From NCBI RefSeq assembly GCF_004010195.1, contig NC_057718.1, positions 49,992,575 through 50,049,447 on the forward strand: DNA of 56,873 bases. The letters are read 5' to 3'. Shown here in pieces: positions 1-53,169 of the stretch; the stretch's first letter is position 1; each line of letters opens with the position of its first letter. Made by a program: the position numbers and the translations under genes. The notes under the pieces are model-generated. The model had not been told where the DNA came from, made no database searches, and saw only the letters and a program-made list of their open reading frames with translations. Source of the stretch: Chiloscyllium plagiosum. Taxonomy: Eukaryota.

Positions 1-211
1 ACTCCGACCTATCACCCTCACCTTGACCTCTTTCCACCTATCACATTTCCAACGCCCCTCCTCCAAGCCCCTCCTCCCTACCTTTTATCTTAGCCTGCTG
101 GACACACTTTCCTCATTTCTGAAGAACAGCTCATGTTCGAAAGGTCGATTCTCCTGCTCCTTGGATGCTGCCTGACCTGCTGCGCTTCTCCAGCAACACG
201 TTTTCAGCTCT
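1..211 (+). mobile_element. 3' end of Penelope-like element (subfamily A) with degenerate hammerhead motif
   Basis: C-rich tract, then ctgaagaacagctcatgttcgaaaggtc (119-148) and the tail ctcctgctccttggatgctgcctgacctgctg shared with many copies in the window. Confidence 0.8.
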
Positions 212-910
212 TATCCTAGATGGTGTCAAGTTTCTTGAGTGTTGTTTGAGCTGCACTTATTCAGGTAACTGAATATTTTTTGACTTGTGCCTTGTAGATT
301 GTAGATGGTGGTCAGACTTTGGGGAGTCAGAATGTGAGTCACTCACTGCGACATTCCCAGCATTTGACCAGCTGTTGTAGCCACTCTTTTTATATGGTAA
401 GTCCAGTTGATTTACAAGTCAATGGTAAACACAGGGATGTTGATAGTGGGAGATTCCATGATTGTAACACCATTGAATGTCAAGGGATAGTGGTTAGATT
501 GTCTCTTTTTGAAGATGGTCATTGTCTGGCATTTGTGCGTTGAGAATCTTACTTACCATTTTTCAGCCTAATTCTGGATATTGTCCGGGTCTTGTTGCAT
601 TTGAGCATGAACTGCTTCAGTATCTGAGGAGTCACAGATTGTGCTGAACAATGCATAAGCACAATCTAATCTTATGATGAAGGGAGGTCATTGATAAAGC
701 AGCTGAAGATAGTTGGATCTGGAAAACTACCCTGAGGAGCACCTGCAGTGATACCCTGGAGCTGATATGATTGAACTCCAACAACCACGACCATCTTCCT
801 ATGTGACAGGCTTGACTCCAACCAGTGGAGAATTTGCTCTTGACTCCCTATGATTCCAGTTTTGCTCGGGCTCCTTGATGCTCTTGGTCAAATATGGCTT
901 TGATGTCATG
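212..910 (-). mobile_element. Old CR1/L2-superfamily LINE, reverse transcriptase fragment (degenerate)
   Basis: Minus-strand translation gives GITAGAPQGS..PTIFSCFINDLP (RT motif region); same family recurs at 35400-36940. Confidence 0.8.
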
Positions 911-1787
911 TGCTTATGTGAATTGTGAGCAAAAATTAATACTTTACTCCTGAATGTAAAACTCTAAATTTGACTCATGGTTGAGAAAATGGCTCCAGCA
1001 TTTGGTCTCAAATTGTAATTCAAATCAATGATTATAATCACATGATATAAAGTTTATAGTCTGGACTTCATACCTCCTTCACATTAGCGTTTATATTACT
1101 GCATGCCTTACATTGGAATGTTATAAACAAATGATGACTGTTGAATCATTCCTGATATAAATGTATTACTCCAGAGACCTTTAAACTAAATGGCCTTTAG
1201 ATACAAATGGTATGAGTAGAGTCGACTGATTGCTAAATACTAATGTAGAGTGAAAACTTAACTTCTTTTCCCATTTTGTGTAACTATTTGCCCTGGTGAT
1301 ACACTCGTGGTTAAAGTTAATGACCTATAATGCCTCCCAACATTGGCATCCTTTGAATTTTTGTGCGTAAAATCCTAATTTTAACTTGAGGCGGCATAGG
1401 TGCAAAAGTGGTCAGTCATCCAACAACTGAACTCCCCCTGCCTCCCAGAGCATGAGGCAGAAGACATTTTTCAAGTTTTTGTTCTCTCAAAAATGTCCTG
1501 CAGCTTATTTTTGCCCTTTTTTGGGTGAGAATGATCTTGTGGATGGTCAGTAAAACCAGGAAATTCATACACTACAACAATACCACGGACAATCTTACCT
1601 CCAGCTTGGGAAAGCGAGCAGGGTGGAAGGGACAGATCACAAACAGGGTAAGAAATCTGGGTCAAACACGTCAGGTTTCCTGTTGGTGCAGAAAGAGCTC
1701 TCCTGTCTTTTCTGAGCCAAAAAGAATCTACAGAAATTTAAAGATTTAATAATGTTCCAAAGCTACTTGTTGACATTTGTCAGTTTA

Positions 1788-2104
1788 GCGCGGTGGCTCA
1801 GTGGATAGCTCTGCCGCTTCACAGTGCCAGGAACCCTGGGTTCAATTCCAGCTTTGGACAATTGTCTGTATAGAGTTTGCATATTCTCCCTGGGTCTGTG
1901 TGGGTCTCCAGTTTCTTCCCACAATCTACAAATGTGCAAGTTAGTTAAATTGACCATGGCCTGTAGACTAAGTGAATTAGCCATGGGAATTGCAGGTTTC
2001 AAAGGTAGGGTAGCAGGAAGTGTCTGGCTGGGATGCAGTTCAGAGGGATAGTGTGGACTTGATGGGCTGAATAGCCTGCTTCCACACTGTAGAGATTCTA
2101 TGAT
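1788..2104 (+). mobile_element. HE1-like tRNA-derived SINE
   Basis: A box gtggctcagtgg, B box gggttcaattcc, V-SINE-like core, CR1-like 3' tail ending gattctatgat. Confidence 0.88.
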
Positions 2105-3529
2105 CTTCTTTTATTCAATGACAGCTTTAATAATGACTGGGATACATAATTCTCACATCTTGAACTTAAAATGGCTTTGTGATTGGAACATTATTGTTCC
2201 CTTCCCAAACCCATGTTTCAGTACTTACTGGAATTACCTGCGTTCAGTGGAGTCTAGCTAAAGAACATGGATGATAAAATATCTCAAGGCACTAAGATTG
2301 CAGGAAAACAGTGAGCAGATTTTGCCCAGACTCCATTTATTCATTGAACTGATAGAGTAAAAACCCAACCAAAAATCAATGCAGTGATAACATTCATAAC
2401 TATATGTAACATAAAAGAAGTTTTGAGTTTCTTTATCTTGCTACAATTCTGTGTCTCTGAAAACTGGCACTAGAAATCTCATTTCGCACTGCTTTATAGT
2501 AAGAGCTACATGTCACTGTGTTAATTTTATTTAGCAGTATCGTGACATCCATAATAGGACAAACAATGTAGCTTTATGCGTTGGAAGCATTTGGGAAATG
2601 ACAGAAATTGTATTTCAATTTGTGCTGGTTATATGACAGTTCACGTTTTCACAGAAATGTATCAACGTAATTACAAATGTAACACCTTCCATGAACTGTA
2701 CAGTGAAGTAGTAGAATAGAATACAATGGTTCATTTATTTTCTTGGCTCTAAGATGCCCTTGATGTATTTCAGAGAGTTAAACCTGTTGCTGTTTTATTA
2801 ATTCAAAAGAAAATGGACTATCACCAAAAATATGGAATTTTATTCAGAATGTCTACTCCTGAGCTGTGAGCAACCTGACTTTGAAACACCAAAAATGACT
2901 TCACAGAGCTACATTGAAATAACTCCCAAGTTTATTAAACAAATGCAAAAACTTTTTAAAGCATAAACATTTTTAAAATAGATACATTTTGCATCAATGA
3001 AAATGCCCTGAACCTGTAGACCCTTGTTTACAATGATATGAAAGTCACATTTCTCATCATTCCATTTGGAGTGAGGCCAGCTTTAAGTGTGCTGTTGAAT
3101 TGGGATGAAATTATTTTTAACCCAGATTTCTCATAAAGAAGAATTTATGTTAATATACTTTGGATAGTTTAATTATATTCTGAAGACCTTCTTAATGCTA
3201 TTATTAATTATTATTAATTAAATCATTATTAATCTCTTTAATTGCTTTTCAAAGATAGGAATGCTACATACTGAGAGTAATTATAGCAGAAACCATGCAA
3301 AATCCAATCACACATGTCTTAAAAAAGGACATAAGTATTTTACTGTTTGTGAACCAACATCTTAAGTAGGCTTTGTAAAAACGATATGCTGCACTATAAT
3401 TAAGCATTAATTTCCCTCTTGTCATTGATTGATATTCAATCATGCATACATACATAATCCCTCCCAGTAACCATCACTACCCTTCGTGTACTTCAGGTAT
3501 CAGCCTTTGCTCATCCAGTACAGGCCAAA

Positions 3530-3735
3530 TTGAGTCCGAAAGGTTTGGGTTCATGCTCTAAAGGCTGGAGTAAATAATCCTGGGCTGTGCTGTGGCAGTG
3601 CTACACTGTCAGTCTCAATGAGGTGGTACACCAAGGACTCATTTGCTCTTTCAGGTGGCTGTAAAGCATCTCACATCATTTATTTTAGAAAACAGACTAA
3701 GACAAAATCCTGACTGCCCTGACCAACATAAGTTC
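3530..3735 (+). mobile_element. Diverged DeuSINE/SacSINE-like SINE relic
   Basis: Core-like segment ctctttcaggtggctgtaaagcatctcac...ctgccctgaccaacata resembles the Deu domain. Confidence 0.5.
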
Positions 3736-4353
3736 CAAGTAGCCCTCAAGCATTCCACTCAATGAAAGCAACTTCAATCTGTTGCAAAAAGTGTCTTCCT
3801 GCAACAAATAAAGGACATCTAAAATTCTTTTACTTTTATTTTGTTTAAGTGCCATTTCATCCCTTCTCTGTGCTTCCTTTTAGTGCCAAAGTGTGAGATG
3901 TGACTCCCTGAACCTCATCATGTACCCCCACAGAGTGACAGGCGTGAGAGAGTTGCTGTGTTTTGGGAGGAGCTTCCTGAAACTAAGGTAACTGCCCTGA
4001 TCCATCAATGAGTCCCTGTGTGCTGAACTGAATTTCTGACACATTGGCACTCCCTGATCCTCCTGACTTACTGTCACATCTGAACAATCTGGTATTGAAA
4101 TATGCATATGGCACTGTCCTGAGAGGTAGCATCCTTAGGCAGAATTTCCATTACTCCCAGGAATCGAGGACGGAAATGCTTTCAGGAGAAGGTGCAACAT
4201 TCTCCTCGATGATCATTCCAAAAGTTTTCTGGTATTTGCCACCTCTACCTGAATGCAGTGCTAGTTAAGGGTTGTTTCAGGAGTTCACTGCCATGGGTCA
4301 TCCTTGTCTTGGATCTATCTAGTATTTAGTGGCACAGGATACATCATTGTAGT

Positions 4354-5460
4354 ATATGTACAACCCCTATGTTCCAGCGGCTGATGTCCTCACCTTCCTG
4401 GGAAGGTACGTCCAAGTTGAGGGAGAAGCCGCCGATGTGATCGACCCCTTTGGGATCTGGACCAGTAAGCGGCAGGTCAGGGTGACTCTGAGGGTCAATG
4501 GCAATGGGAACATTCTTCACCCATCCTCAAGCCTCGCAATTGGAGGGAACAGAGGCTACCTGACATATGCAGGGCAGCCGAAAGTGTGCCGAACCTACGG
4601 GAAGTCGGGACACGTGGCGGTGGACTGCAAGGGGACCATCTGCAGGAACTGCAAACAGGAGGGTCACCTGACTAAGGACTGTCAGGAAGAAAAGAGCTGC
4701 AACCTGTGCGGAGAGGCGGGCCACATGTACAAGACCTGCCCAAGACGGGGGGCCCCACTTACGCACAGATGGCTGGAGGTGGCAATGTGAGCCGTGGACC
4801 CCCAAAGAACAGTAATGTGCACCCAGACAGCAGGGAAACAGAGTCTGGTGGCACCCAGAAAGAAGAACAGGCTGGAGTGGAGGAGGTGGCAACCAGCGGA
4901 GAGACACAGCAGCTGATCCTAGCTCTCGCTGGGCAGATGGAAGCATTGGATGAGGAGGTAATCGAGCAGACAGGTAACTGAGAGCTGTGATCCTCTGACA
5001 GTCCCATTGTCAGACACAGAACTGGACGGTGCGGACCCTTGCCTCGGCTCAATGACTCCAGAGCGGGTAAATAACCACAGTGAGGGCTTGGATAGCTACC
5101 TCAGCCCAGCGAGGGTCCAGCAGTTCGTGCTCACCATGGGGATGCAGACAGCTTCCCCAGAGACAGGACAGTCAAATGGACAACGGTAACCCCATACACT
5201 GGGATTAAAAAAGGTTCATTTGCTATAGTATAACAGGGCACCCACTCAGTAGGTGGGTCCTGCTGAAGCCACAGCTAAATAATAAGAGACTGGATGGTTA
5301 ATAAAGGGAACTGTAAATAGGATAACTGTAAATTCGAGTAATTCAATCTGTTCTTTGTAATGTTAAGACATACAATGTATATATCTATGAATGACATGAC
5401 AAATTGTACAAGTACCAAAGATTTATTTCTATGAATAAAGTATATTTTGAAATGAAAAAA
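4354..5460 (+). mobile_element. Tx1/L1-clade retrotransposon copy containing only ORF1 (zinc-knuckle protein) plus 3' tail
   Basis: ORF 4356-4790 has three CCHC knuckles (CRTYGKSGHVAVDC, CRNCKQEGHLTKDC, CNLCGEAGHMYKTC) after a Y.GQPKVC motif; aataaa plus A-rich tail at 5435-5460; 15-bp TSD atacatcattgtagt at 4339-4353 and 5461-5475. Confidence 0.85.
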
Positions 5461-5955
5461 ATACATCATTGTAGTCTATCTACAGAAATGGCACTGTTCT
5501 TAGATAACAGGAAGGCTTATTGCATGACAACAATAAGTACAACTACAGTTGCTGAGGTATATAAAGTTGCTGAGATATAATTACTAGAAGCTAAAGAAGC
5601 AGTTATCAATGCACCTGTTCCTTCCGAAAACTGCAGTCGAACCCTTTGTGTCCAGCCACCGATTTTGCATAACATCAGCTGAAGGGGTGGAGCCAATGTA
5701 ACATGAACATTAACACCCTTAGAATTATCACATCATAAACCATGAGGAAGATGGTGGCATAGTGATGTCGTTGCTGGATTAATAATCCAGAGGCTCGGTT
5801 AAATTTTGAGGGACCATAATCACCACCACCGTCAAGTTCCCCATGAAGCCATTCACCGTCCTGAGTTGAAAATATATTGTCATTCCTTGAATGTCACTGG
5901 GTGAACATCTTAGATCTTTTCTCATAATGACTTTGTGAGCATATCTACAACAAAC

Positions 5956-7674: not shown

Positions 7675-7799
7675 AAATGGAATGCAGGAGACCATGAAGC
7701 TCCCCATCACATTCTTAAGAGCAACTAGGAATGAACTAAAAATACTGGTCCAGCCACTGATGTCCACATCTCATGAATGTATTTAAAAAAAAACAATAC

Positions 7800-9954: not shown

Positions 9955-12900
9955 TTGTTACTTCTTCAAAAAACTCAATCAAGTTTGTGAGACCTTATTT
10001 CCCATGCACAAAGCCATGCTGACTATCCCAAATCAGTCCTTGCCTTTCCAAATACGTGTACATCCTGTCCCTCAGGATTCCCTCCAACAACATGTCCACC
10101 ACCAACATCAGGCTCACTGGTCTATAGTTCCCAAGCTTGTCCTTATCACCCTTCTTAAACAATGGCACCACGTTCGCCAACCTCCAGTCTTCTGACACCT
10201 CACAGTGACTATCGATGATACAAATATCTCAGCAAGGGGCCCAGCAATCACTTCTCTAGCTTCTCACAGTGTTCTCGGGGAAACCTGATCAGGTCCTGGG
10301 GACTTATCCATCTTTATGCATTTCAAGACAGCCAGCAGTTTCTCCTCTGTAATATGGACATTTTGCAAGATGTCACCATCTCTTTCCCTACAGTCTATAT
10401 CTTCCATATCCTTTTCCATAGTAAATTCTGATGCAAAATACTCATTTAGTATTTCCCCCATTTTCTGCTGCTCCACACAAAGGCCACCTTGTTGATCTTT
10501 GAGGAGCCCTATTGTCTCCCTCGTTAATCTTTTGTCCGTAATATATTTGTAAAAACACTTTGGATTCTCTTTAATTCTATTTGCCAAAGCTATCTCATGT
10601 CCCCTTTTTGACCTCCTGATTTGTCTCTTAAGTATACTCCTACTTCCTTTATACTCTTCTAAGGATTCACTTGATCTATCCTGTCTATACCTGACAAATG
10701 CTTCCTTCTTTTTCTTAACTAAACCTTCAATTTTGTTAGTCATCTAGCATTCCCTATACCTACCAGCCTTTCCTTTCACCCTAACAGGAATATACTTTCT
10801 CTGGATTCTCGTTATCTCATTTCTGAAGGCTTCCCATTTTCCAGCCGTCCCTTTACCGGCGAACATCTGCCCCCAATCACCTTTTCAAAATTTTTGCCTA
10901 ATACCGTCAAAATTGGCCTTTCTCCAATTTAGAATTTCAACTTTTAGATCTGGTCTACCTTTTTCCATCACTATTTTAAATCTAATAGAATTATGGTCGC
11001 TGGCCCCAAAGTGCTCCCCCGCTGACACCTCAGTCACCTGCCCTGCCTTATTTCCCAAGAGTAGGTCAAGTTTTGCACCTTCTTTAGTGGGTACATCCAC
11101 ATACTGAATCAGAAAATTGTCTTGTACACACTTAACAAATTCCCCTCCATCTAAACCCTTAACACTATGGCCATCCCAGTCTATGTTTGGAACGTTAAAA
11201 TCCCCTACCATAACCACCCTATTATTCTTACAGATGGCAGAGATCTCCTTACAAGTTTGTTTCTTAATTTCCCTCTGACTATTAGGGGGTCTGTAATTCC
11301 AGTAAGGTGATCATCCCTTTCTTATTTCTCAGTTCCAACAAAATAACTTCCCTGGGTGTATTTCAAGGAATATCCTCACTCAGCACAGCTGTAATGCTAT
11401 CCCTTATCAAAAACGCCACTCCCCCTCCTCTCTTGCCTCCCTTTCTCTTCTTCCTGTAGCATTTGTATCCTGGAACATTAAGCTGCCAGTCCTGCCCATC
11501 CCTGAGCCATGTTTCTCTAATTGCTTTGATATCCCAGTCCCATGTTCCTAACCATGCCCTGAGTTCATCTGCCTTCCCTGTTAGGACACTTGCATTGAAA
11601 TAAATGCAGTTTAATTTCTTAGTTCTCCCTAGTCCCTGCCTGGCCTGACTGTTTGACTCGCTTCTGTTCTCAACTGTATCAGTCTCAGATTGACCTCTTT
11701 CCTCATTATCTGCCTGGTTTCCACCCCCTCCCCCCCCATCTCCACCACTTTACTAGTTTAAATCTTTCCGAGCAGCTCTGTCAAATCTCCCTGCCCTTAT
11801 ATTAGTCCCCTTCCAATTTAGGTGCAATCCGTCCTTCTTGTACAGGTCACTTCTACCCCAAAAGAGATTCCAATGATCCAAAAATGCGAATTCTTCTCCC
11901 ATCCACCATCTGCTCTATTCTCCTATTCCTGCCCTCACTAGCTCTTAGCACCAGGTGTAATCCAGATATTACTACTCTCGAGGACCTCCTTTTAAAATTC
12001 CTGTCTAACTCTCTGTAATCACCCTTCAGAATCTCAACCTTTTCCCTTCCTATGTCATTTGTTCCAATGTGGACAATGACCTCCTGCTGGCCCCTCTCCC
12101 CCTTGAGAACATTCTGCACTCTCTCTGAGACATCCTTGATCCTGGCACCAGGGAAGCAATACACCATTCTGATTTTTTTGCTGCTGGCCACAGAAACGTC
12201 TGCCTGTACCTCACACTAGACAATCCCTAACACAACTGATCTCTTGGAACCCAATGTACCCCTCATTGCATTAGAGCCAGTCTCAATACCAGAAACTTGG
12301 TTGTTCATTATACGTTCCCCTGAGAATCCATCACCTCCTACGTTTTCCAAAGCAGCATACTTGTTTGATATGGGATAGCCACAGAACACACCTTCCCAAG
12401 GTGCCTACCTCTCTTACCTTTCCTGGAGTTAACCGATCTATGTGACTGTATCTGAGACTTTCCCCCCTTCCTATAATTGCCATCCATCACATACTGTTAC
12501 TGTTGCAAATTCCTCATTGCTTCTAACTGTCCATTTGATCTGATAAGGTTCACAACCAACAGCATTTATTGCAGATATAATCTTCGGTAACCCTTAAACT
12601 CTCTTTAAACTTCCACATCTGACAAGAAGCACATATCACTCTACTAAAGGCCATTTTTGCTCCTTCATAATCTACTGACCCAGAAAATAACACCATCCTT
12701 TTCCTCTACAAACACTGCCCCAGCTTAAATTATAGTTATGGCTTATATTTTAAGTTTGATCAGGAGACATATCTCCAAAAACCTACAATCAAGAAAGGAC
12801 CCACTCCACTCACTACTGCAGACTTTCTGTGGGCCACACTTAAAACAATGATTAATTTATAAAAGTAAGTTACTGTGGATGCTGGAATCTGGTTTCAGAT

Positions 12901-13512
12901 TTCAGCATCTGCAGTAACTTACTTTTATCTCGTGTTTAACCCACTGGCACCTCTCTTCCAGGAATGCCTACCCCGAAGAAGTACTGCTCTTCTCTCCGAC
13001 AGGAGTTTCGCTCGAGCTTTGACAAAAGGTCAGTTAGACTCGAAACGTCCGCTCTTTTCTCTCCTTACAGATGCTACCGAATGTGCTGAGACTTTCCAGC
13101 ATTTTCTCTCTTTGGGTACAATGATTAACTTATCTGATTCTGTGCTGTGACCTTTGTCCAACCGCTCCTCCAAGATCAGTTGTGAATTTCAGTGTTTGTT
13201 AATTTTCCCAGACACACTCCGATGTCCAGCGGCACATGAATTCAAACAGCAAAGGCAGCGTCAGTTTCTTTCTCTCTCTGTCTCCTGCACTGACCTCACC
13301 ATGTGCTTCCTTTGTTTGTCCTTCTCCCTTTTAAAACTGCCGTTGCTTTGACTTTTTTTCCCAAAGTTCCAAAACAATGCAACAGCATATAAAACAGTCA
13401 TTGCTGCTCCTGGTATTCGAGGAAATCACCTCCAGCACCTAAAATACCTCAAAAAAGGAGCAGCTGTTACAGCCAGAAATGTTTCCCGTCCTCCATCTTG
13501 GATTACCCAGAA
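9955..13512 (-). mobile_element. CR1 LINE 5' part: 5' UTR, ORF1 with SGNH esterase domain, ORF2 APE endonuclease and start of RT; 3'-truncated
   Basis: ORF 11853-12191 CFPGARIKDV...VIVHIGTNDIG (esterase); ORF 10885-11217 VGDFN.P.IDW...LDLLL...SDH (APE); ORF 9995-10198 EDWRLANVVPLFKKG. Confidence 0.93.
12861..13117 (+). mobile_element. Short Penelope-like terminal fragment (subfamily D) nested in the CR1 5' region
   Basis: Palindrome at about 12860-12927; variant hammerhead-like tgacaaaaggtcagttagactcgaaacgtc (13020-13049); 16-bp TSD acaatgattaa(t/c)ttat at 12845-12860 and 13118-13133. Confidence 0.7.
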
Positions 13513-13767: not shown

Positions 13768-13985
13768 GGTCAGAAGTCATATGATTGCTGACAACATGAT
13801 GCTAGGTTATAATCCAACAGGTTTATTTGAAATCACAACTTTAAGAACGCTGCTCCTTTGTCACTTGATGAAGGAGCAGTGCTCTGAAAGCTAGTGATTT
13901 CAAATAAACCTGTTATACTATAACTTGGTGTCATGTGACTTCTGAACATGTCCACCCCAGTTCAACATTGGCACCTCTACAGCAT
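13768..13985 (+). mobile_element. Fold-back Penelope-like terminal fragment (subfamily C) with hammerhead motif
   Basis: Diverged inverted repeat centred near 13862; ttgatgaaggagcagtgctctgaaagcta (13865-13893); same tail as 49954-50057. Confidence 0.75.
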
Positions 13986-14766: not shown

Positions 14767-14949
14767 CAGGTCAGGCAGCATCCAGGGAACAGGAGATTCG
14801 ACGTTTCGGGCACAGGCCCTTCTTCAGGAAGAAGGGCCTGTGCCCGAAACGTCGAATCTCCTGTTCCCTGGATGCTGCCTGACCTGCTGTGCTGTTCCAG
14901 CAATAAAGTTTCAACTTTGATCTCCAGCATCTGCAGACCTCACTTTCTC
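14767..14949. mobile_element. Fold-back PLE terminal insertion (subfamily A) with perfect 60-bp-arm palindrome and hammerhead motif
   Basis: Arms 14766-14825 and 14828-14887 are exact reverse complements with a 2-nt spacer; minus strand ctgaagaagggcctgtgcccgaaacgtc; TSD cttgctctcagttttg at 14751-14766 and 14950-14965. Confidence 0.9.
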
Positions 14950-16518: not shown

Positions 16519-16703
16519 GAGGAGAAAGTGAGATCTGCAGATGCTGGAGATCAGAGCTGGAAATGTGTTGCTGGAAAAGCGCAGCAGGTCAGGCAGCATC
16601 CAGGGAACAGGAGAATCGACGTTTCGGGCATAAGCCCTTCTTCAGGCTTATGCCCAAAACGTCGATTCTCCTGTTCCCTGGATGCTGCCTGACCTGCTGC
16701 GCT
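16519..16703 (-). mobile_element. Fold-back PLE terminal insertion (subfamily A) with hammerhead motif
   Basis: Inverted arms about 16578-16636 and 16645-16703; minus ctgaagaagggcttatgcccgaaacgtc; 15-bp TSD tataaaggcttcatg at 16504-16518 and 16704-16718. Confidence 0.9.
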
Positions 16704-20962: not shown

Positions 20963-21095
20963 TTACCTGAAGAAGGGCTCATGCCCGAAACGTCGATAGA
21001 TTCCTGAAGAAGGGCTCATGCCCGAAATGTCGATTCTCCTGCTCCTTGGATGCTGCCTGACCTGCTGCGTTTTTCCAGCAACACATTTTCAGCTA
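20963..21095 (+). mobile_element. Short PLE terminal insertion (subfamily A) with two tandem hammerhead motifs
   Basis: ctgaagaagggctcatgcccgaaacgtc (20967-20994) and ctgaagaagggctcatgcccgaaatgtc (21004-21031); 14-bp TSD aggtactaaagtac at 20949-20962 and 21096-21109. Confidence 0.9.
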
Positions 21096-25579: not shown

Positions 25580-25692
25580 GCAAAAGTGAGGACTGCAGAT
25601 GCTGGAAATTAGAGTCAAGATTAGAGCTGTGCTGGAAATGCACGCGGCAGGTCAGGCAGCATCTGAGAAACAGGAAAATCGACGTTTTGAGT
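25580..25692 (-). mobile_element. Diverged PLE terminal fragment (subfamily A)
   Basis: aaaagtgaggactgcagatgctgg...caggtcaggcagcatc...atcgacgtttt; ends inside the hammerhead motif. Confidence 0.75.
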
Positions 25693-32140: not shown

Positions 32141-32149
32141 CAGGAAATT

Positions 32150-34932: not shown

Positions 34933-35132
34933 CTTTTGGCTCATGTCCATACCAGTCAAAAATAACCACCTAACTGTTGTGGTTCTGTTCGCCGAGCTGG
35001 AAGTTTTTGTTGCAAACGTTTCGTCCCCTGGCCTTTTGGCACATGTCCATACCAGTCAAAAATAACGACCTAACTGTTGTGGTTCTGTTCGCCGAGCTGG
35101 AAGTTTTTGTTGCAAACGTTTCGTCCCCTGGC
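34933..35132. repeat. Tandem duplication, 2 x 100 bp, spanning a PLE-flank junction
   Basis: 34933-35032 and 35033-35132 differ at two positions. Confidence 0.95.
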
Positions 35133-35374
35133 TAGGCAACATCATCAGTGCTTGGGAGCCTCCTGCGAAGCGCTTCTTTGATGTTTCCTCCAGTGTTTAT
35201 AGTGGTCTGTCCCTGCCGCTTCCGGTTGTCAGTTTCAGCTGTCCGCTGTAGTGGTTGGTATATTGGGTCCAGGTCAATGTGTTTGTTGATGGAGTTTGTG
35301 GATGAATGCCATGCCTCTAGGAATTCCCTGGCTGTTCTCTGTCTGGCTTGCCCTATGATAGTAGTGTTGTCCCA
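34976..35374 (-). mobile_element. Penelope-like element 3' fragment (subfamily B): end of endonuclease ORF plus hammerhead motif
   Basis: ORF 35132-35452 WDNTTIIGQARQRTAREFLEAWHS..SINKH is a PLE C-terminus (RE.LE motif); minus ctgatgatgttgcctagccaggggacgaaacgtt at 35115-35148. Confidence 0.88.
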
Positions 35375-35399
35375 CTCAGTGGCCATGAGTTTCAAAGTT

Positions 35400-36940
35400 G
35401 CTGACTTCGGCAATTTCTGGAGTGCATCTTGTAGATAGTACACAGCTAGCATGTAGATGGCTACTACTGAGCATTGGTGGTGGAGAGAGTGGATTTTGTG
35501 GATATGGAGTCAGTCAAGAGAGTTGCTTTGTCCTGGATAGAGTCCAGCTTATTGAGTGTTATAGATATAGAAGATATAGAACCCCTACTGTGTGACAACA
35601 GGCCCTATGGCCCAACCAGTCCACACCAATTCTCAGAAGAGTAACCCACCCACCCAGACACATTCCCGTACATCTACCCGGACTAATACACCTAACCTAC
35701 ACATCCCTGAACACTATGGGCAATTTAGCATGGCCAATTTACCTAACATGCACATCTTTGGATTATGGGAGGAAACCGGAGCACCTGGAGGAAACCCACG
35801 CAGACACGGGGACAATGTGCAAATTCCACACAGACAGTTGCCAAAGGTGGGAATTGCACCCAGGTACCTGGTGCTGTGAAGCAACAGTGCTAACCACTGA
35901 GTCACCATGCTACCCCGTGTTTTTGGAGTTGAATTCGCTGAGGCAAGTGGGCATATTCCATCACACTCCTGACTTGTGCCTTGTAGGTGGTGGATGTGCT
36001 TTGGGGAATCAGGAGGTACTCACCACAATATTCCTAGTCTCTGATCTATCTTGTAGCCATTGTATCTATATGGTCAGGCCAGTTGAGTTTCTGGACAATG
36101 GTAACCCCTGGATGTTGACAATGGGGATTCAGTGATGGTAAATCTATTGAAAGCCAAGGGGAGATGGTTAGATTGTCTCCTTTTGGAGGTGGTTATTGTC
36201 TGGTGTTTGTGCTTCAATGTTGAAAACAAAAAATGCTGGAGATCACATTGGGTCATCCATGAGAGAAAGCAAGCTAACATTTTGAGTCTAGGTGACTCTG
36301 CTTCTGTATGTGAGGAGTTGCAATAATGCTGAACTTTGTGCAGCCATTGACAAACATCTGCACTTGTAAGCTTATGATAGATTGATGAAGCAGCTGAAGA
36401 TGTTTGGGCCTCAGACACTACCCTAAAGAACTCCTGCAGATGTCCTGTAGCTGAGATGACTGAGTTCCACTACCACTACCAACTTCCTATGTATCAGGTA
36501 TGACTCCAACCAGTAGAAAGTTTGTGCCTGATACCCACTGATTCCAGTTTTGCTCAGGCTCCTTGACATCATACTCAGCTGAATGTTGACTAGTTGTCAA
36601 GGATGTCACTCTTGCCTCATCTCTGGAATCCAGCTCTTTTATCTATGTTGAACCAAGGCTGCAATGAGGTCAGGCATTGAGTGGCTCTGGTAGAAGAAAA
36701 ATTGGAGCAGGTTATTGCTAAGCAGGTGTTATTTGATAGCACTGTTAATGATGCCTTCCATCACTTTACTGATGATTGAGAGTGGACTGATGGGGTGGTA
36801 ATTGACCAAATTGGATTTGTCTTGCCATTTGTGTACAGAACATAACTGGGAAATTTCCACATTGGCGGGTAGATGCCAGTGTTGAAGCTGAAATGGAATA
36901 ATTTGATTAGGGATACAGAAATCCCTGGAGCAGAATTCTT
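35400..36940 (-). mobile_element. Old CR1/L2-superfamily LINE RT fragment (same family as 212-910), interrupted by a SINE and a small PLE end
   Basis: ORF 36761-36943 KLFHFSFNTGIYPPMWK; DICRSSL/GVP.GS-like region; visible similarity to 212-910. Confidence 0.8.
35575..35915 (-). mobile_element. HE1-like SINE
   Basis: Minus ggtgactcagtggttagcactg head and the same core as 32150-32449. Confidence 0.9.
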
Positions 36941-36944
36941 CAAG

Positions 36945-38375
36945 AGGAAGAAGAAAGTTTATGTAAAGATGTGATGTGAAGGCTCAGTCAGGGTGCTTGA
37001 GTTACAAATTAGCCAGGAAGGACCAAACAAGAGCTAAGAAGAGCCAGGAAGGGACATGAGAAGTCTTTGGCAGATAGAATGAAGGAAAACCCAAAAGCTT
37101 TCTATAGGTGTGTCAGGAATAAAAGAATGAGAAGAGTAAGATTAGGGCCAGTCAAGGACAGTAGTGGGAAAATTGTGTGTGGAGTCCAAGGAGATAGGAG
37201 AGGTGCTAAATGAATATTTTTCTTCAGGATTCATACTGGAAAATGACAATGTTGTTGAGGAGAATATTGAGATGCAGACTATTAGACTTGATGGGATTGA
37301 GGTTCATCTGGAGGAGGTGTTATCAATTCTGGCAAGTGTGAGAATAGATAAGCCCCCTGGGCCAGATGGGTTTTATCCTAGGATTCTCTGGGATGCTAGG
37401 AAAGATATTGCAGAGCTATTGGCTTGGATCTTTATGTCATCATTACCTACAGGAATAGTGCCAGAAGATTGGAGGACAGCAAATGTTGTCCCATTGTTCA
37501 AGAAAGGGAGTAGAGACAACCCTATGAATTATAGACCAGTGAGCCTTACTTCAGTTGTGGATAAATTGTTGGAAAACTTTCTAAGAGATAGGATTTATAA
37601 TCATCTAGATAGGAATAACTTGATTAGGGATAGTCAACACGGTTTTGCGAAGGGTAAGTCATCCCTCACAAATCTTATTGAGTTCTTTGAGAAGGTGACC
37701 AAACAGGTGGATGAGGGTAAAGCAGTTGATGTGATACATATGGATTTCAGTGAGGCATTTGACAAGGTTCCCCATGGTTAGCTATCGCATAAAATACGGA
37801 GGCATGGGGACTGAGAGCGATTTAGCAGTTTGGATCAGAAATTGGTTAGCTCAAAGAAGACAGAGGGTGGTGGTTGATGGGAAATGTTCATCCTGGAGTT
37901 TAGTTACTAGTGATGTACCGCAAGGATCTGTTTTGGTGCCACTGCTATTTGTCATTTTTATAAATGACCCGGATGAGGGCATAGGAGGATGGGTCTGTAA
38001 ATTTGTGGAGTTGTGGACAGTGCCACAGGATGTTGTAGATTACAGAGGGACATAGATAAGCTGCAGAGCTGGGCTGAGAGGTGGTAAATGGAGTTTAATG
38101 CGGAAAAGTGGGAGGTGATTCACTTTGGAACGAGTAACAGGAATGCAGAGTACTGGGATAATGGTAAGATTCTTGACAGATGAGCAGGGAGATATCAGTG
38201 ACCATGTATACAGATCTCTGAAAGTTGCCACCCAGGTTGATGGGGTTGTTAAGAAGGCATACGGTATGGTATGTTAGCTTTTATTCGTCAAGGGAGCTAT
38301 GAGGTCATACTGTACAAAACTTTGGTGTTGCGTACAGTTCTTGTCACCATGTTATAGGAAGGATGTGGAAACATT
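36945..38375 (+). mobile_element. CR1 LINE ORF2 (RT) fragment
   Basis: ORF 37164-37781 [50 protein letters not shown] 37750-38055 VPQGSVL. Confidence 0.95.
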
Positions 38376-38847
38376 GAAAAAGTTTTTGTTGCAAACCTTT
38401 CGTCCCCTGGCTGGGCGACATCATCAGTGCTTGGGAGCCTCCTGTGAAGCGCTTCTTTGATGTTTCCTCCGGTGTTTATAGTGGTCTGTTCCTGCCGCTT
38501 CCGGTTGTCAGTTTCTGCTGTCCGCTGTAGTCGTTGGTTTATTGGGTCCAGGTCGATGTGTTTGTTGATGGAGTTTGTGGATGAATGCCATGACTCTAGG
38601 AGTTCCCTGGCTGTTCTCTGTCTGGCTTGCCCTATGATAGTAGTGTTGTCCCAGAGGAACACCTAGCGGCAGGGACAGACCACTATAAACACCGGAGGAA
38701 ACATCAAAGAAGCGCTTCGCAGGAGGCTCCCAAGCACTGATGATGTCGCCTAGCCAGGGGACGAAACGTTTGCAACAAAAACTTCCAGCTCGGCGAATAG
38801 AACCACAACAACGAGCACTCGAGCTACAAATCTTCGCACAAACTTTG
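38376..38847. mobile_element. Inverted pair of Penelope-like 3' fragments (subfamily B) with hammerhead motifs
   Basis: Minus copy 38376-38653 and plus copy about 38665-38847; intact plus motif ctgatgatgtcgcctagccaggggacgaaacgtt at 38737-38770. Confidence 0.88.
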
Positions 38848-43253: not shown

Positions 43254-43470
43254 GAGAGTGTGGTGCTGAAAAAGCACAGCCAGTCAGGCAGCATCCGAGG
43301 AACAGGAGAATCGACGTTTCAGGCATAAGCCCTTCACAGATTGAAGGTGAGCCTCATCCTGGATGAAAGGCTTATGCCCGAAACATTGATCCTCCTGCTC
43401 CTTGGATGCTGCCTGACCTGCTGTGCTTTTCCAGCACCACACTTTCGACTGCAGTCCTCATTTTCTCCCT
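43254..43470. mobile_element. Diverged fold-back PLE terminal insertion (subfamily A)
   Basis: Inverted arms around a short spacer near 43340-43360, degenerate hammerhead motifs; TSD gttaaatagagtc at 43241-43253 and 43475-43487. Confidence 0.85.
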
Positions 43471-43721: not shown

Positions 43722-43750
43722 GGAGAAAGTGAGGACTGCAGATGCTGGAG
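43722..43750 (-). mobile_element. 29-bp PLE 3'-terminal micro-insertion
   Basis: ggagaaagtgaggactgcagatgctggag between 15-bp direct repeats ttataacactaacta (43707-43721, 43751-43765). Confidence 0.85.
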
Positions 43751-45660: not shown

Positions 45661-46299
45661 TCCAGCAGATTAACACAGACATTTGTGCGTGGTTGGATTT
45701 GGGTATAGGAAGGGTTTGGAGGGATATGGGCTGGATGCGAGCAGGTGGGACTTGATTAGGTTGGGATATCTGGTCGGCATGGACGGGTTGGACCAAAGGG
45801 TCTGTTTCCATCTGTACATCGCTATGACTCTATGACATCCCCTCCTTTTGATCCAAAAAATGGTAGCAATAATGGCAGCCATTATCATGTACATTTTTAG
45901 TTATCCCTAGTTAATAACTAAAACACAGGATTCTCATGGTTTAGCATTTCATTATTTCCATTATTTTTTGTTATTTTAGATTTTATTGTCACATGTACTC
46001 AAGTACAGGGATACAGGAGTATAGTGAAATGTGTACAGTGTTGTCATTCTTGGTAACATCTTAGGTACAAAGAATGTTTTGACAACAGTTCTGTCCAAAT
46101 TCATGAGAAACTGTGCAGGTGAAGAAGCCTTGTTCAATGCTGATGAATCTTGAGTCATTGGCATGGTTATCCTAAAAGGTGTTTATATAGATGAAAGATT
46201 TTGGGGAGCAAACACAAAAGGAAAAAAAAAATCATTGTTTTGAGTGCTACAACCAATTAACTTTTACTGTTTCAGTGGGTTTCATCCACAAACCAAAGG
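44601..46299. repeat. Inverted duplication of about 230 bp (arms 44601-44832 and 46068-46299)
   Basis: ORF track shows the same peptide TQDSSALNKASSPAQFLMNLDRTVVKTFF on opposite strands; direct nucleotide alignment. Confidence 0.95.
45690..45836 (+). mobile_element. CR1 LINE 3' tail
   Basis: gaagggtttggagggatatggg...ctatgactctatgac, as at 7545-7674. Confidence 0.85.
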
Positions 46300-47099: not shown

Positions 47100-47490
47100 A
47101 TACGTCTTCCATCAGGCAAATGATGCAGAAGCCTGAACACACATACCTGAAAATGTGTTGCTGGAAAAGCGCAGCAGGTCAGGCAGCATCCAAGGAACAG
47201 GAGAATCGACGTTTCGGGCATAAACCCTTCTTCAGGAATCACACATACCAGCAGGTTCCGGAACAGCTTCTTCCCAGCCGTTATTAGATTATGAATGGGC
47301 TCACAAGTCTCAAACAATGCTGATCTTGCTAATGTTGCTCTCGCCTAGCAGACGCCCTCTAACCTGTATGCCTCTGTCTAAGTATTTTTACAGCTTCTGA
47401 TCTGTACATCCTTGTTCCCCCACACAGCTCTTAAACAATACTTTTCACTGTACTTCGGTACTCGTGACAATCAATCAATCAATAAATATC
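47100..47490 (+). mobile_element. Rex1/Babar-like LINE 3' end
   Basis: LPSGK*CRSLNTHT | SRFRNSFFPAVIRL C-terminal motif split by a PLE insertion; tail cttttcactgtac..gtgacaatcaatcaatcaa. Confidence 0.75.
47148..47239 (-). mobile_element. Short PLE terminal insertion (subfamily A) with hammerhead motif
   Basis: Minus attcctgaagaagggtttatgcccgaaacgtc; 10-bp TSD cacacatacc at 47138-47147 and 47240-47249. Confidence 0.9.
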
Positions 47491-47783
47491 ATTCAATTCC
47501 ACCATTTTCGATCAAAGTGGCAACTGTTTCATACAGGTCCTAAGGTGCCACTTGAGCTAGATTTTGCTGACATTGCTGAATGTTTGTACCCCAACTGGGT
47601 CTTCAGGACTCAGCTCTGGCAATGGTTTAGCAGATAGCTTTGCAGTTTGCCTTGTATATATCTGTGTGGTAGTAGCTATTTAGTGATTTTCTCAGCTTTT
47701 CCATTTGACTGGGAACATTGTGGAGATGATGTGATGTGAGATAGTCATAGAGGTTTACAGCAGCAGGCCCTTCAGCCCACCTT

Positions 47784-49172
47784 GGAGAAAGTGAGGACTG
47801 CAAATGCTGGAGAGTCAGAGTCGAAAAGTATGGCACTGGAAAAGCACAGCAGGTCAGGCAGTGATGTTATTGGGTGTGTGTGTCCCAGAGATGTTCTCGG
47901 AAAAGTACCGCGAGTTGGCATCTTGTTTCCCCAATGTAGAAGAGACTTCATCGAGAGCAACGGGCACAGTAGATGAGGTGTGCTGATGTACAGGAAAATC
48001 TCTGCCAGATGTGAAAAGATCCTTTGAAGCTTTGGATGGAGGTGAAGGGGGAGGTGTGTGCTCAGGTTTTACACCTCTTGTGTTGTCAAGGGAAGTTGCC
48101 GGGAGTGGAGGGTGGGTTGAATGGGGGTGTGGACTTAATGAGAGATGTAGATAGGAGTGCGAAATGTATCTCTGATGGTGGGGTCTAATTGCAGGTGATG
48201 GAAATAGTGGAGGATAATGCGTAATATCCAGAGATTAGTGGGATGGAAGCTGAGGACCAGGAGGATTCCATCCTTGTTACATTTGAAGGGGTGGACTTCA
48301 AGGGTGGAGGTGCAGGAAGTGGAGGAGATGCACTGAAGGACATTGTTGATCATGTGGGAGGAGAGATTGTGGTCCTTGAAATAGGGGGCCATCTGAGATG
48401 TTCCGGAGTGGAATTGCTCCTCGTGGGAACAGATACGGTGGAGGCGGAGAAATTGGGAGTAAGGGATCGTGTTTTTATGAGAGGGGGTGGGAGGAGGTGT
48501 AGACAGGCAGTTATGGAAGTCGGTGGGTATCTAATAGATGTCCATGTTGAGTCAGATGCCGGAGAGGTCCAGGAAGGGGAGGTGGCATCTGAGATGGCCC
48601 AGGTGAACTTAAGGTTAGGATGGAAGGTGTTAGTGAAGTTGCTGAACTGTTCCACTTCCTGGACACCTCCCTCCCCTTCCTGGACCTCTCCGTCACCAGC
48701 TCCACTGACCGACTTAACATGGACATCTATTTCAAACCCATTCACTCCCACAGCTACATCCTCCTAACTCCTCCCAATCCACACCCCCATTCCCCATAAA
48801 AACGCGATTCTTTACTCCCAATTCCTCCGTCTTTGCCGTATCTGCTCCCAAGAGGAGCTATTCCACTTAAGGACATCCCAGATAACCTCCTGTTTCAAGG
48901 AACGCAATTTTCCCTCCTGTGTGATCAACCATGCCCTCGAACGCATCTCCTCCACTTCCTGCACCTCCGCCCTTGAACCCCACCTGTCCAATTGCAACAG
49001 GGATAGAAGCCCCCAGTCTTCATTTTCCATCCCACTAATCTCTGGTACAGAGAGTATCTTCTGCCATTTCTGCCACTTACAATCAGAGCCCAGCACCAGG
49101 GATATATTTCCCTTCCCACCCCTATCTGGTTCCAGAGAGAGACCATTCCCTCCGTGACTCTTTCATTAGGTC
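47784..49172. mobile_element. Rearranged Penelope-like element: GIY-YIG endonuclease and RT C-terminal region on minus (47863-48660), inverted RT C-terminal region on plus (48661-49172)
   Basis: Minus translation FSCTSAHLIYCARCSR*SLFYIGETR...FREH (GIY-YIG with Cys motif); EQFSNFTNTFHPNLKFTW; IPYSQFLRL.RICS-like on plus. Confidence 0.9.
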
Positions 49173-49174
49173 TA

Positions 49175-50057
49175 AGCATGTGGGTGTGTGTGTGTGTGCA
49201 CGGGGTGGGTATGAGTGTCTGTGAGAGAGTGTGTGTATATGTATGTGTGTGAGTATGAGTCTAATCGGGTTTTAGTCTGTGAGTGGGTACGTGTGTGAAT
49301 GTGGAAGTGTGTATGTAAGTGTATGAGAGAAAGCTTGTGTATGAGAGAGGATCTGTATGAGTGTATGGGTCTGTAGGAGTGTGTGTGTTTGTGTGTGTTT
49401 GTGTGTGTGTGTATGTCATGCAGTGGAATCACCTGTAGTGTGACATGAACCGAAGATCCAGTTGAGGCCATCCCCATGGGTACTGAACTTAGCTATCAGC
49501 CTCTGCTTGGCCACTTTGCATTGTTGCCTGTCCCTCACACACACACCCTCATGCACACATACACATATATTTTTATAGGGTGAATTTGTACTTGCAGAAT
49601 TACATTTTATTTTGCTCAAAAACTGCATGAATCCATGTACGATTCTGTAAATCCCTTTTTTAGATTAGAATCAGTCTGAACATTGTGGCACAGACAGTCT
49701 CACGCAGGGCAGCTCACAACATAAATGTATTATCTGGGCCGACATGGCTCCTATTGTTAAAGTTCACTTGATTATGTAACTTTAGAAAGTTCTGGGATTT
49801 ACATGTGAAAGAACTGAAACCAACATGCCCATTCTAAAGGATGAGAGACTTAACAAACAATCCAGGTCTTTTTCAATATATAATTTCAATTACATCACAC
49901 TGTAAACCTTTGCTATAAATTCTGTGTCTTGTGATCTTATACTCCACAACTATCTGATGAAGGAGCAGTGTTCCAAAACCTATTGGAGTATAACCTGGTG
50001 TTGTATGATTTTTAACTTTGTACACCCCAGTCCAACACCAGCATCTCCAAATCATCA
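49175..50057. mobile_element. Penelope-like 3' region (subfamily C) with (TG)n/(CA)n tracts and a degenerate hammerhead motif
   Basis: Imperfect TG microsatellite at 49178-49415; ctgatgaaggagcagtgttccaaaa at 49954; tail accccagtccaacaccagcatctcc shared with 13950-13985. Confidence 0.75.
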
Positions 50058-50830: not shown

Positions 50831-51793
50831 GATAGTGCCCATCAATTTACATTACCAGGTCCATCTCAAGAAATAGGGTAATTTATGCTCATATTTGAAT
50901 TACATTGCAGAGCTTTGTAGGTCATGGAGTTATCTTGAGTGTGCTATTAGTTACATGTACAACCAATTTTTAATAATCAGTCAGGCTCATTACATGTTTT
51001 TTTTAAGCTGGCTGGAAGTAACATGCATACATTGTGCAGGGCTCTGCTTTTGCTACCAAGATGATTTGTTAAAGTCATATATCTTTTCTGAATAGGCATG
51101 AACAAACATTTTAAAACTATAAAATAAACCAACTGTTCGCACACAGAACTTGGTGGGAGTCATTTATGGACAACTCAAAGGCACAAAACATAATAGGCAG
51201 GAGGTGCAAATCAGCAATATTTTTTATTGTCGTATTTGTCTCAATGCCTTGAGATTTCAGCTGGTCTGGAATCAAGGTTGACGGCTTCCTCCCAAGTCTG
51301 TCATATTGTGCCAGTACGTCTTGTCACTCTATTTTGCTGATGGGACAGGATATTCCTGGAGTCAGTGATAAAGGAATGGAATGTTGGCTGGAACATACAA
51401 GTCAGACATCAGACTATTGCTTAGCTAGTCTGTGGTCAGATGTTAGTTATTAAAACAGCTGTTCTTTTTAGTATAGATGGATGACATGGAATTGTTTTAT
51501 CAAAGCCATAGCTTCAATGTTTGCAAATAATATAATGCTTGAAAATGCAACAAATTGCTCTTTTGATTTTGGCCATAGATGTTAATGAGAAGAATTGATG
51601 AAGCTAGATGTAATTGTGTCTGAATTTAATGCCAAGGTGACTGCTGGGTGGTCCATCTACATTTATTCTGGCAACATTTTGTTGTCATAGTTAATGCAAC
51701 TGAAAGGCTTGCTAGCCATTTCAGAGAGTAGTTAAGAGTCAAACTCACTGGTGTAGATCTGATGCTACATTTAGGCATGCCTAGGTAAAAAAA

Positions 51794-52125
51794 ATCATAG
51801 AATCCCTGCAGTGAGAAAGCAGACCATTTGGCCCATCAAGTGACACCGAGCCTCCAAAGATATATCCACCCAGACCCACTCTCCTTCCTTGCATTTGCCA
51901 TGGCTAATCTACCTAAGCGTGCACATCTCCAGATACCATGGGTAATTTAGCATGGCCAATCCACCTAATCTGCACATATTTGGACTGTGAGAGGAAACTG
52001 GAGTACCTGAAGAAAACCTACACAGACACAGGGAGAATGTGCAAACTCCACACGGTTGCCCAAGTGTGGAATCAAACCAGGGTCCCTGGTGCTGTGAGGC
52101 AGCAGTGCTAATCACTGAGCCACCA
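51794..52125 (-). mobile_element. HE1-like SINE
   Basis: Minus ggtggctcagtgattagc head, B box tggtttgattcc, conserved core and CR1-like tail. Confidence 0.9.
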
Positions 52126-52856
52126 TATTGTTCATCAAAATGTCAGAATTCTTCCCCTAAAGCACATTAATGTTTATTTAATCAAAGTAAACAGTCAACT
52201 TAGTGTCAACAACATAGAAAATTCTTAGTTTAAATGGTGAGTAGTTGTGTGGACATAAAATTAGCTAGCGTACAGGAAGCAAAGTAGTGATAAAATTTGT
52301 TTTGCGATTGGAAGGAAGTCTGCACTGTTTTTCCTCAGGGCTGATTACTAGAACTACTGCTCTTTTTGAGTAGGTTAATCATCTCAGCTTCTAAGCATTG
52401 GTATCTAATAAACTGTCATCATCAGGCAGAGGATCAAATAGTATGTGTGGGTAATAAAAGCCATGTGTGGTGCTGACTGCTGGAATGGCTAACATCTTAT
52501 CATTTCAAAGCTGCACACCATGATCTATTTCGCTAGATGCTGCCAGAGCATGAAGATCTAGAATCTCTTTCAGAGAAACATGTGACAGAAATTGTGCACT
52601 CACCACTCCACGCCCGGCCTTATATGAAGGAGGTGAGCAGTGTGGTCCTGGAAAGGGCTGCTCACACACTCAGACGACTGCCGAGGTCAACTTCTGCTTC
52701 CTTCCAGTGAGAAGCTATCCTATGTCCTGAGCAACAAGTGAGCAGGTCGGTGGCTACAGTTCCCAATGAATCCACATCGAATGCATACGTTGCTTGCCCA
52801 GCAGACCTCCGACAGATAGATGATTCTGATAAACATTAGAAAGATGATGGATATGA

Positions 52857-52985
52857 AAGTTTGTGAGAAGATTTGTAGCTCGGGTGCTCGTTGCTGTGGT
52901 TCTGTTCGCCGAGCTGGAAGTTTTTGTTGCAAACGTTTCGTCCCCTGTCTAGGTGACATCCTCAGTGCTTGGGAGCCTCCTGTGA
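52857..52985 (-). mobile_element. Short PLE terminal insertion (subfamily B) with hammerhead motif
   Basis: Minus gcactgaggatgtcacctagacaggggacgaaacgtttgc; 13-bp TSD atgatggatatga at 52844-52856 and 52986-52998. Confidence 0.9.
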
Positions 52986-53076
52986 ATGATGGATATGATT
53001 TAATTATGGTGAGGGAATATTGCACATTGTCAGTCTTATTTGTATGGATCTAACTTGATCAAGTGGCAGCTTAGGC

Positions 53077-53169
53077 CTGATCAAGGGCTTATGCCCGAAA
53101 CATTGACTCTCCTTCTCCTTGAATGCTGCCTGACCTGCTGTGCTTTTCCAGCACCCCACTATTCGACCC
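53077..53169 (+). mobile_element. Diverged short PLE terminal insertion (subfamily A)
   Basis: ctgatcaagggcttatgcccgaaacatt plus subfamily tail; diverged direct repeat tggcagcttaggcctgatca / tggcaacttaagcctaatca. Confidence 0.75.

Follow-up and report, generated by a model that had tools for sequence, protein, structure and literature searches.

Insertions of endonuclease-positive Penelope-like elements (PLEs) have been described as carrying a hammerhead ribozyme in a pseudo-long terminal repeat (pLTR), together with inversions, an optional tail of 30-40 bp, target site duplications (TSDs), heavy truncation, and solo pLTRs (Craig et al. 2021, PMC8557442; Arkhipova et al. 2013, PMC3846280). 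Single minimal hammerheads, thousands per genome, have been reported as "probably related to truncated PLEs" (PMC4209133), and the cleavage of PLE hammerheads as dimers is attributed to Lunse et al. (as cited in PMC6765202). Dispersed single minimal hammerheads from truncated PLEs have been known since 2014, with non-autonomous derivatives following later, and cargo capture is also in print. Here we consider a 56,873-nt stretch of the genome of the shark Chiloscyllium plagiosum (contig NC_057718.1, positions 49,992,575 to 50,049,447; below, the window), repeat-rich eukaryotic DNA for which an initial annotation had proposed that a ribozyme-bearing PLE terminus is mobilised on its own, in the manner of a short interspersed element (SINE). 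We find that the inserts in question are pLTR pieces of PLEs. Our preferred reading, to which we give a probability of roughly 0.63, is that they are solo or inverted pLTR pieces of endonuclease-positive PLEs, likely copied in cis from the 5' junction of pLTR and open reading frame (ORF) in the mRNA of autonomous elements, and likely immobile afterwards.

The traits of described PLE insertions recur at this locus, with TSDs of similar size; what differs is that solo pieces dominate here, and that the starts of one family, A, cluster at the 5' edge of the ribozyme. With the hammerheads of PMC4209133 these inserts share a minimal type I core, a palindromic 15-16 position, an extra base before stem II, and an occurrence mostly as single motifs but also as opposite-strand pairs, whereas stem II measures 4 bp in family A against 6-8 bp in that report. 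The text of PMC4209133 mentions neither shark nor Callorhinchus, and a literature search, conducted mostly outside subscription papers, returned nothing about the shark families described here or about a clustering of starts at a ribozyme edge. What the window adds is a set of fossil boundaries, through which a still open question about how PLEs replicate can be tested in a vertebrate.

Hammerhead motifs and the insertions that hold them

All 16 sites listed by the initial annotation, which had counted more than 12 hammerhead-type motifs, were found near the coordinates given. At 8 of these 16 the features required of a minimal type I hammerhead with an ACGT palindrome are intact. Five full cores (14827-, 16645-, 20967+, 21004+, and 47235-) were recovered by a strict descriptor (CTGANGA, a stem II of at least 4 bp, and GAAA-N-N'-U-H), compared with a mean of 0.045 and a maximum of 1 in 200 dinucleotide shuffles. 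Three family B cores (35148-, 38737+, and 52965-, belonging to B1, B3, and B4) were judged intact by inspection, the strict descriptor having missed them because their stem II has an internal mismatch. The core or stem III is altered at 119, in both copies at 43310-43385, at 38427 and 53077, in both C copies, and in D, where U3 and A8 stand in place of C3 and G8, either as the covariant core described in PMC4209133 or through two decay events. Stem II is present in the predicted folds of A, B3, and C, and 12 segments folded as monomers do not outperform their shuffles (z from -1.4 to +0.6). The Rfam search, taken up to E 5, did not return the hammerhead family; ten weak matches to unrelated Rfam families were taken as chance. 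We note in passing that the CTGATGA words within the inverted repeats 44604-44832 / 46068-46297 are not hammerheads.

Self-comparison and boundary searches resolve the motifs into 15 insertions, listed here in window coordinates along with a separate PLE relic. The 3' ends in families A and B take two forms about 35 nt apart, which makes the tail optional.

1..209, + strand: A1, end of a longer, probably Neptune-type PLE copy; pyrimidine-rich untranslated region (UTR) 1-118; decayed hammerhead 119-146; short end, no tail; leaves the window
12856..13117, + strand: D, one insertion; 11-bp TSD 12845-12855 / 13118-13128; in order, inverted tail, tail, 84 nt of downstream sequence (probable ORF start, ATG 12964), hammerhead variant 13019, body to the short end
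13794..13980, + strand: C1, third terminus family; head-to-head inverted pair, junction 13864/13865 at the hammerhead 5' edge; decayed cores; right boundary approximate
14767..14949, + strand: A2, inverted arm (intact core 14827, minus strand) and main copy with tail; TSD 16 bp
16519..16703, - strand: A3, main copy with tail, intact core 16645, and inverted arm; TSD 15 bp
20963..21095, + strand: A4/A5, partial tandem, cores 20967 and 21004 (37 nt apart); short end; TSD 14 bp
25583..25690, - strand: A6, older copy with tail; start inside stem II; TSD not found
34975..38847, - strand: B composite, one insertion; 12-bp TSD 34964-34975 / 38848-38859
43254..43469, + strand: A7, inverted arm and main copy, tail partly deleted; both cores decayed; TSD 18 bp with 1 mismatch
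43722..43750, - strand: A7b, 29-bp tail-only insertion, no ribozyme; perfect 15-bp TSD
47148..47239, - strand: A8, 92-bp solo copy; intact core 47235; start 4 nt before the core; short end; TSD 10 bp
47781..49160, - strand: A9 tail (47781-47861) and a probably Neptune-type relic; ribozyme and UTR deleted
49860..50054, + strand: C2, longer C copy; about 100 nt upstream of decayed core 49954; left boundary approximate; TSD not found
52857..52985, - strand: B4, 129-bp pLTR piece; intact core 52965; tail; start 21 nt before the core; TSD 13 bp
53079..53169, + strand: A10, solo copy; decayed core 53077; short end; TSD about 15 bp with 2 mismatches
56044..56810, + strand: decayed reverse transcriptase (RT) relic of a probably Neptune-type PLE

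A TSD of 10-18 bp was found for 10 of the 15 insertions, none with a poly(A) end, and among 400 boundary pairs drawn at random none had an exact word of at least 9. Short insertions with a TSD, of 29-262 bp, make up 9 of the 15; the initial annotation had placed most motifs in non-coding inserts of 90-260 bp with TSDs of 10-16 bp, but family B is coding. Nor does every insert have its own TSD, since none was found for C1, C2, A6, or A9. Other sites had been misread as mini-inserts: the motif at 119 lies at the 3' end of a longer element that leaves the window, and those at 35115, 38395, and 38737 lie within 3.9 kb flanked by one TSD. The smallest PLE footprint in the window, A7b, was absent from the initial list. 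A head-to-head inverted stretch occurs in 7 of the 15 (A2, A3, A7, C1, D, B2/B3, and the 47863-49160 relic). The tail is present in A2, A3, A6, A7 (in part), A7b, and A9 and absent from A1, A4/5, A8, and A10; in family B it is present in B3 and B4 and absent from B1.

No insert segment begins or ends at the cleavage site (GUC/GUU), and the nearest case, the end of A4, lies 3 nt beyond it; hammerhead cleavage sets no insert boundary. This bears directly on animal non-LTR retrozymes (Cervera and De la Pena 2020, PMC7229834; Li et al. 2026, 10.64898/2026.07.22.740005), which as described share with these inserts non-coding repeats with type I hammerheads, kinship with PLE pLTRs, dispersed monomers, and a chondrichthyan host. 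If the inserts had arisen in that way, ribozyme-cut monomers would have circularised and been copied by rolling-circle reverse transcription. The type I hammerheads that the 2026 preprint reports in PLE-derived repeats of one chondrichthyan would fit such an origin, as would the permuted unit of about 225 nt in D and the A4/A5 pair, the only head-to-tail ribozyme pair in the window. Retrozymes, however, are described as tandem units with canonical cores, whereas here the cores are minimal, half of those listed are broken, and the window contains no tandem array of ribozyme-bearing units beyond the 37-nt partial tandem of A4/A5. The junction within D falls 5-6 nt before the core, away from the cut, and the inverted arms and optional tails are marks of PLE insertion. 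We regard a retrozyme origin as highly improbable, and by the criterion of the 2026 preprint the inserts are, apart from that partial tandem, not active retrozymes.

PLE termini behind the families

The PLE origin proposed for the inserts is borne out by what they are joined to, family B to both the end and the start of a PLE ORF, and family A to a GIY-YIG relic. By its sequence, family B is a Poseidon-type PLE terminus, and its description as non-coding does not stand. B1 and B2 hold the last 80 codons of a PLE ORF, encoding residues 382-462 of P0001, a Chiloscyllium protein with RT and GIY-YIG domains, at 81-85% identity; this piece also shares 77-89% identity with proteins from Chiloscyllium punctatum, Hemiscyllium ocellatum, and Rhincodon typus (8 matches among 52 candidates), which points to an orectolobiform shark as the likely host. 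The terminus itself encodes the first 36 residues of the ORF, and its peptide aligns with P0062 at residues 19-54 (83%, E 2.5e-15) and weakly with P0016, a protein of 824 aa, at residues 1-37 (E 0.049). Beyond the matched residues P0062 continues into a PLE N-terminal region and then an RT, thereby reproducing the junction of pLTR and ORF in a relative.

The arrangement of B closely follows that of PAc, the Poseidon element of Anolis carolinensis (Frangieh et al. 2024, PMC11167929), for which insertion is reported to proceed without hammerhead cleavage. As in PAc, the ORF of B starts at stem II, with the cut 28 nt past the ATG (26 nt in PAc), and both have two 3' ends about 36 nt apart within AC-rich sequence. 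B copies end 68 or about 105 nt inside the ORF, compared with 111-118 for the main PAc site. PAc is a Poseidon element, whereas A, C, and D are not Poseidon-type.

Family A is probably a Neptune-type terminus, as suggested by a linker with C and H residues before the GIY-YIG domain and by likeness to long proteins. The PLE relics that had been placed at 47863-48660 and 56036-56873 are real, at 47863-49160 and 56044-56810. The A9 tail directly abuts the first of these, a decayed thumb, linker, and GIY-YIG relic on the minus strand (47863-48660, junction 47861/47863), and an inverted copy follows on the plus strand at 48664-49160; the broken frames of the GIY-YIG relic align to residues 577-821 of P0160. 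The A-terminus translation is also found inside 2 of 150 Neptune-RT matches (P0151 and P0221), and A1 extends upstream into UTR before leaving the window. An ATG frame in the A tail was rejected as an ORF start, having matched no N-terminus among the compared proteins. Pfam searches with 13 frames gave matches solely for pieces of long interspersed elements (LINEs) and no family for the eight PLE-derived frames, which are short or off-frame; a protein search with 47857-48234, a stop-to-stop frame lying mostly off the true frame, found no match. The A-family patterns had no match across viral, prokaryote, and metagenome contigs. A search of sequencing runs listed no RNA run containing family B, which we take as evidence in neither direction.

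D aligns with A across body and tail, and is a permuted unit of about 225 nt with an inverted tail. One 11-bp TSD encloses the tail, the 84 nt beyond it, and the ribozyme segment, and hence the template of D took in sequence downstream of the tail. Of the proteins compared, the one closest to the 16-residue frame past the tail is P0168, Neptune-like and 924 aa long, at its N-terminus (9 of 2000 shuffles, with four N-termini compared), which is only suggestive of a link to a PLE ORF start. Family C is linked to no ORF within the window. The four or so subfamilies that had been distinguished belong to at least two PLE clades, with B of Poseidon type and A, together with D by homology, probably of Neptune type.

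Clustered starts and the origin of the short class

A feature that we did not see in the cited descriptions of PLE insertions lies at the upstream end. Relative to the first base of the core, the outermost starts of the family A insertions fall at +2, -1, -1, +17, -8, +99, -4, and -1, with two further long copies, so that 6 of 10 start within 12 nt at the ribozyme 5' edge (-8 to +2). In simulations of exponential truncation with means of 60, 100, 150, 250, and 500 nt, such clustering had P of 0.019, 0.002, 0.0004, 2e-5, and 1e-5, respectively, and under uniform truncation P was 0.0004. The same edge is shared by the inversion point of C1 and by the ribozyme segment of D. In family B, B1 and B2 are 96% alike and begin at the identical base, 226 nt before the core. 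For family A, then, the discrete short class that had been proposed is upheld, in place of a smooth continuum of 5' truncation.

Four public sequencing runs placed on window positions 1-240 add a view of this terminus beyond the window. Among the loose-end rows listed at 138-140, 10 of 11 contain the upstream edge of the core and then differ from one another, with an agreement past that edge of 0.52-0.66, and UTR depth drops 1.5-2-fold across about 60 nt in the DNA runs. The ratio of the tail peak to the nearest UTR peak is 6.1 in X2 and 8.9 in X1 (DNA contigs), 9.8 in X21 (raw RNA reads), and 49 in X15; this depth is summed over contigs rather than a copy number, and the step is inflated because the tail is common to subfamilies whose UTRs may be less than 80% alike. 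These limits weigh against our reading of the inserts, as do several further points. A1, on which the reads were placed, is diverged at the core, where depth has a trough (113-136). The start offsets of family A were taken manually from a single alignment of the 10 insertions, and they are scattered across about 10 nt rather than sharing one base. The sole hint of a transcription start is an initiator-like word at -4 in A1 that is absent in A7. B3 and B4 start at -72 and -21, such that family B truncates freely too. The peptide score of D, 32, equals the null median of 32 when all compared proteins are considered. Finally, the requirement of PAc for downstream ORF sequence, on which we draw below, is known from in vitro work on a single Poseidon element and may not extend to a Neptune-type family A.

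Heavy 5' truncation is usual for PLEs (PMC8557442), and the clustered starts might reflect ordinary truncation with a hot spot, in which the RT stalls, the complementary DNA folds back, or microhomology acts at the purine-rich edge of the ribozyme. Further starts at +17, +99, -21, -72, and about -100 would be accommodated by this reading, as would the 2-3 nt overlaps at the inversion junctions of A2 and A3. A stall at a hairpin, however, would be expected on its 3' side, yet most copies contain the whole fold, and stem II has just 4 bp and folds no better than shuffles. Moreover, the inversion-free copies A4/5, A8, and A10 share the clustered start, and the common start of B1 and B2 lies 226 nt from the ribozyme. 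We consider a truncation hot spot rather unlikely.

Our preferred reading instead places the boundary in the RNA. A pLTR would consist of a UTR or ORF end, the hammerhead, and the first bases of the element, a composition shown for B. The PLE protein would nick the target, and the RT would begin internally on the RNA, at either of two positions some 35 nt apart, thereby yielding the optional tail; internal initiation at two sites has been shown in vitro for PAc (PMC11167929). From a site in the front pLTR, the RT would copy 90-130 nt (A) or 300 nt (B) before it ran off the 5' end of the RNA, which would produce the discrete short class, and we infer that the clustered A starts mark the transcription start. 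In Drosophila, the Penelope transcript is reported to start inside the upstream pLTR, with a promoter internal to the pLTR (PMC2377424). Often the insertion would then be completed by another stretch, in inverted orientation, or by a template jump, producing the hairpins, the permuted D, and the 3-kb cargo of the B composite, structures that are themselves observed. The ribozyme would be a passenger, its cleavage playing no role in the ends of the inserts. Use of PAc RNA requires the first 172 nt of the ORF (PMC11167929), and because B stops 68 or about 105 nt in, the inserts would have no recognition site of their own and the solo copies would probably be dead ends.

If the clustered starts do correspond to the RNA 5' end, initiation within the front pLTR would explain genomes filled with very short copies, and transcription starts would be predicted at about -4 (A) and -226 (B) from the core.

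Mobilisation by PLE RT and GIY-YIG enzymes, as the initial annotation supposed, is retained in this reading; its further proposal, that the terminus moves on its own, is not. The inserts are wholly pLTR, their ends are the two of the type made by PLE RT initiation, with or without the tail, many carry the inverted copy usual in PLE insertions, and B stops early in the ORF. The annotation had offered a discrete short class, as against a truncation continuum, as the deciding observation, but the two readings are not separated in this way because run-off from the 5' pLTR of an autonomous mRNA also yields a discrete class: internal initiation followed by run-off suffices without short masters.

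The SINE-like reading nonetheless deserves consideration in its own terms, as a family of solo pLTRs with an internal promoter whose own transcripts are copied in trans by PLE enzymes and bred from short masters. It would account for the discrete start and the large surplus of short copies, the internal promoter of Drosophila Penelope (PMC2377424) would serve it equally, and non-autonomous PLE derivatives are known (MRC1, PMC8557442; retrozymes, 10.64898/2026.07.22.740005). Its best foothold is D, which retains the sequence past the tail that any mobilisable mini-element would need, and which could be a monomer of an internally deleted mini-element. Reads of the A terminus are also contained in a poly(A) single-cell RNA run (X21, of which about 2 in 100 was used). 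They fall on both strands, however (852 versus 1388 at the peak), and share no common start or end in the part used, as expected for passengers of host transcripts. At the inserts, Rfam up to E 5 returned no tRNA-, 5S-, or 7SL-derived promoter head, and no foreign head and no poly(A) or simple-repeat end is present. All inserts but D stop at or before the tail, and thus are without the downstream ORF sequence required by PAc, and no two inserts share a flank or cargo. We judge this reading unlikely. The same holds for its most ambitious form, a Penelope-dependent equivalent of SINEs in sharks, doubtful in our view, in which transcription would begin at the first base of the hammerhead, copying would proceed in trans with D-like permuted units of 225 nt, combining a pLTR with the region of the ORF start, as masters, and the same machinery would move kilobases of host DNA between pLTRs, as in the B composite.

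For annotation, we suggest that such pieces be labelled PLE pLTRs, neither SINEs nor functional ribozyme genes. We note separately that a back-joint from 186 to 145 in X21 (4 reads, 2 starts) was rejected as a circle, a genomic partial tandem explaining it, and that no back-joint at the cleavage site was supported in this run, which is unsuited to circles and in which self-cleavage would not be expected to leave a common read end.

The B composite and other repeats of the window

The B composite is made up of pLTR B1 (35075-35374, without tail), 3.0 kb of old host repeats (35375-38379), pLTR B2 (38380-38653, 3'-truncated), and inverted pLTR B3 (38665-38847, with tail). The 12-mer at 34964 recurs in the window at 35064 (1 mismatch), 38848, and 38963 and nowhere else, and when boundary pairs spaced 3-5 kb were drawn at random, an exact 11-mer turned up in 1 of 20000 trials. 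Because this 12-mer stands at both outer ends, B1, the 3.0 kb of LINE and SINE pieces, B2, and inverted B3 constitute a single 3.9-kb insertion. Recombination between two separate inverted B copies was rejected, since the two outer ends would then not carry one and the same direct TSD. Tandem duplications of 100 bp (34933-35132) and 115 bp (38816-39053), 98-99% alike, cross both outer junctions and are the sole long-period tandems among the 8 tandem-repeat rows of the window; they may have arisen in the course of insertion, or may reflect an error in the assembly of this locus.

The cargo has no near-identical copy elsewhere in the window, and a local inversion or duplication was rejected as its source on that ground and because neither 33500-34932 nor 38850-40500 continues it. 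No donor or empty site was seen, and other copies in the window did not establish continuity of the left and right flanks across the empty site. Next to the right TSD stands a word of 14 nt (38856-38869) that recurs inverted, at 93%, at the junction of B2 and cargo (38371-38384), hinting that this junction formed at the target. The closest described parallel is host DNA between Penelope pLTRs in Adineta vaga (PMC3846280), where a pair of pLTRs in direct orientation and a single inverted one likewise surround unrelated DNA within one TSD; that case carries a nonribosomal peptide synthetase (NRPS) gene, whereas the composite carries 3.0 kb of old repeats and its B2 is 3'-truncated. The composite suggests that PLEs may transport about 3 kb of host DNA in sharks.

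The remaining repeats of the window are of other kinds. Inverted repeats of 272 bp at 30401-30671 / 31450-31720 (94% alike, about 780 bp between them) probably belong to a non-autonomous DNA transposon, and those of 230 bp at 44604-44832 / 46068-46297 (95% alike, about 1.2 kb between them) probably to a DNA transposon as well. A fragment at 27481-27669 resembles the non-RT part of P0119 (37%), and we take it to be a piece of a PIF/Harbinger-type transposase. Pfam places a ZCCHC3 RNA-binding domain and zinc knuckles at 4353-4790, presumably ORF1 of an L1/Tx1-type element. Decayed pieces of CR1-type LINEs, which include RT, AP endonuclease, and esterase-like ORF1 domains, lie at 5939-7786, 9152-12215, 37046-38379, and 45705-45836, and an old dispersed SINE-like repeat of about 340 bp, its copies 66-83% alike, occurs at 1786-2111, 15678-15831, 32149-32447, 35562-35908, and 51782-52126.

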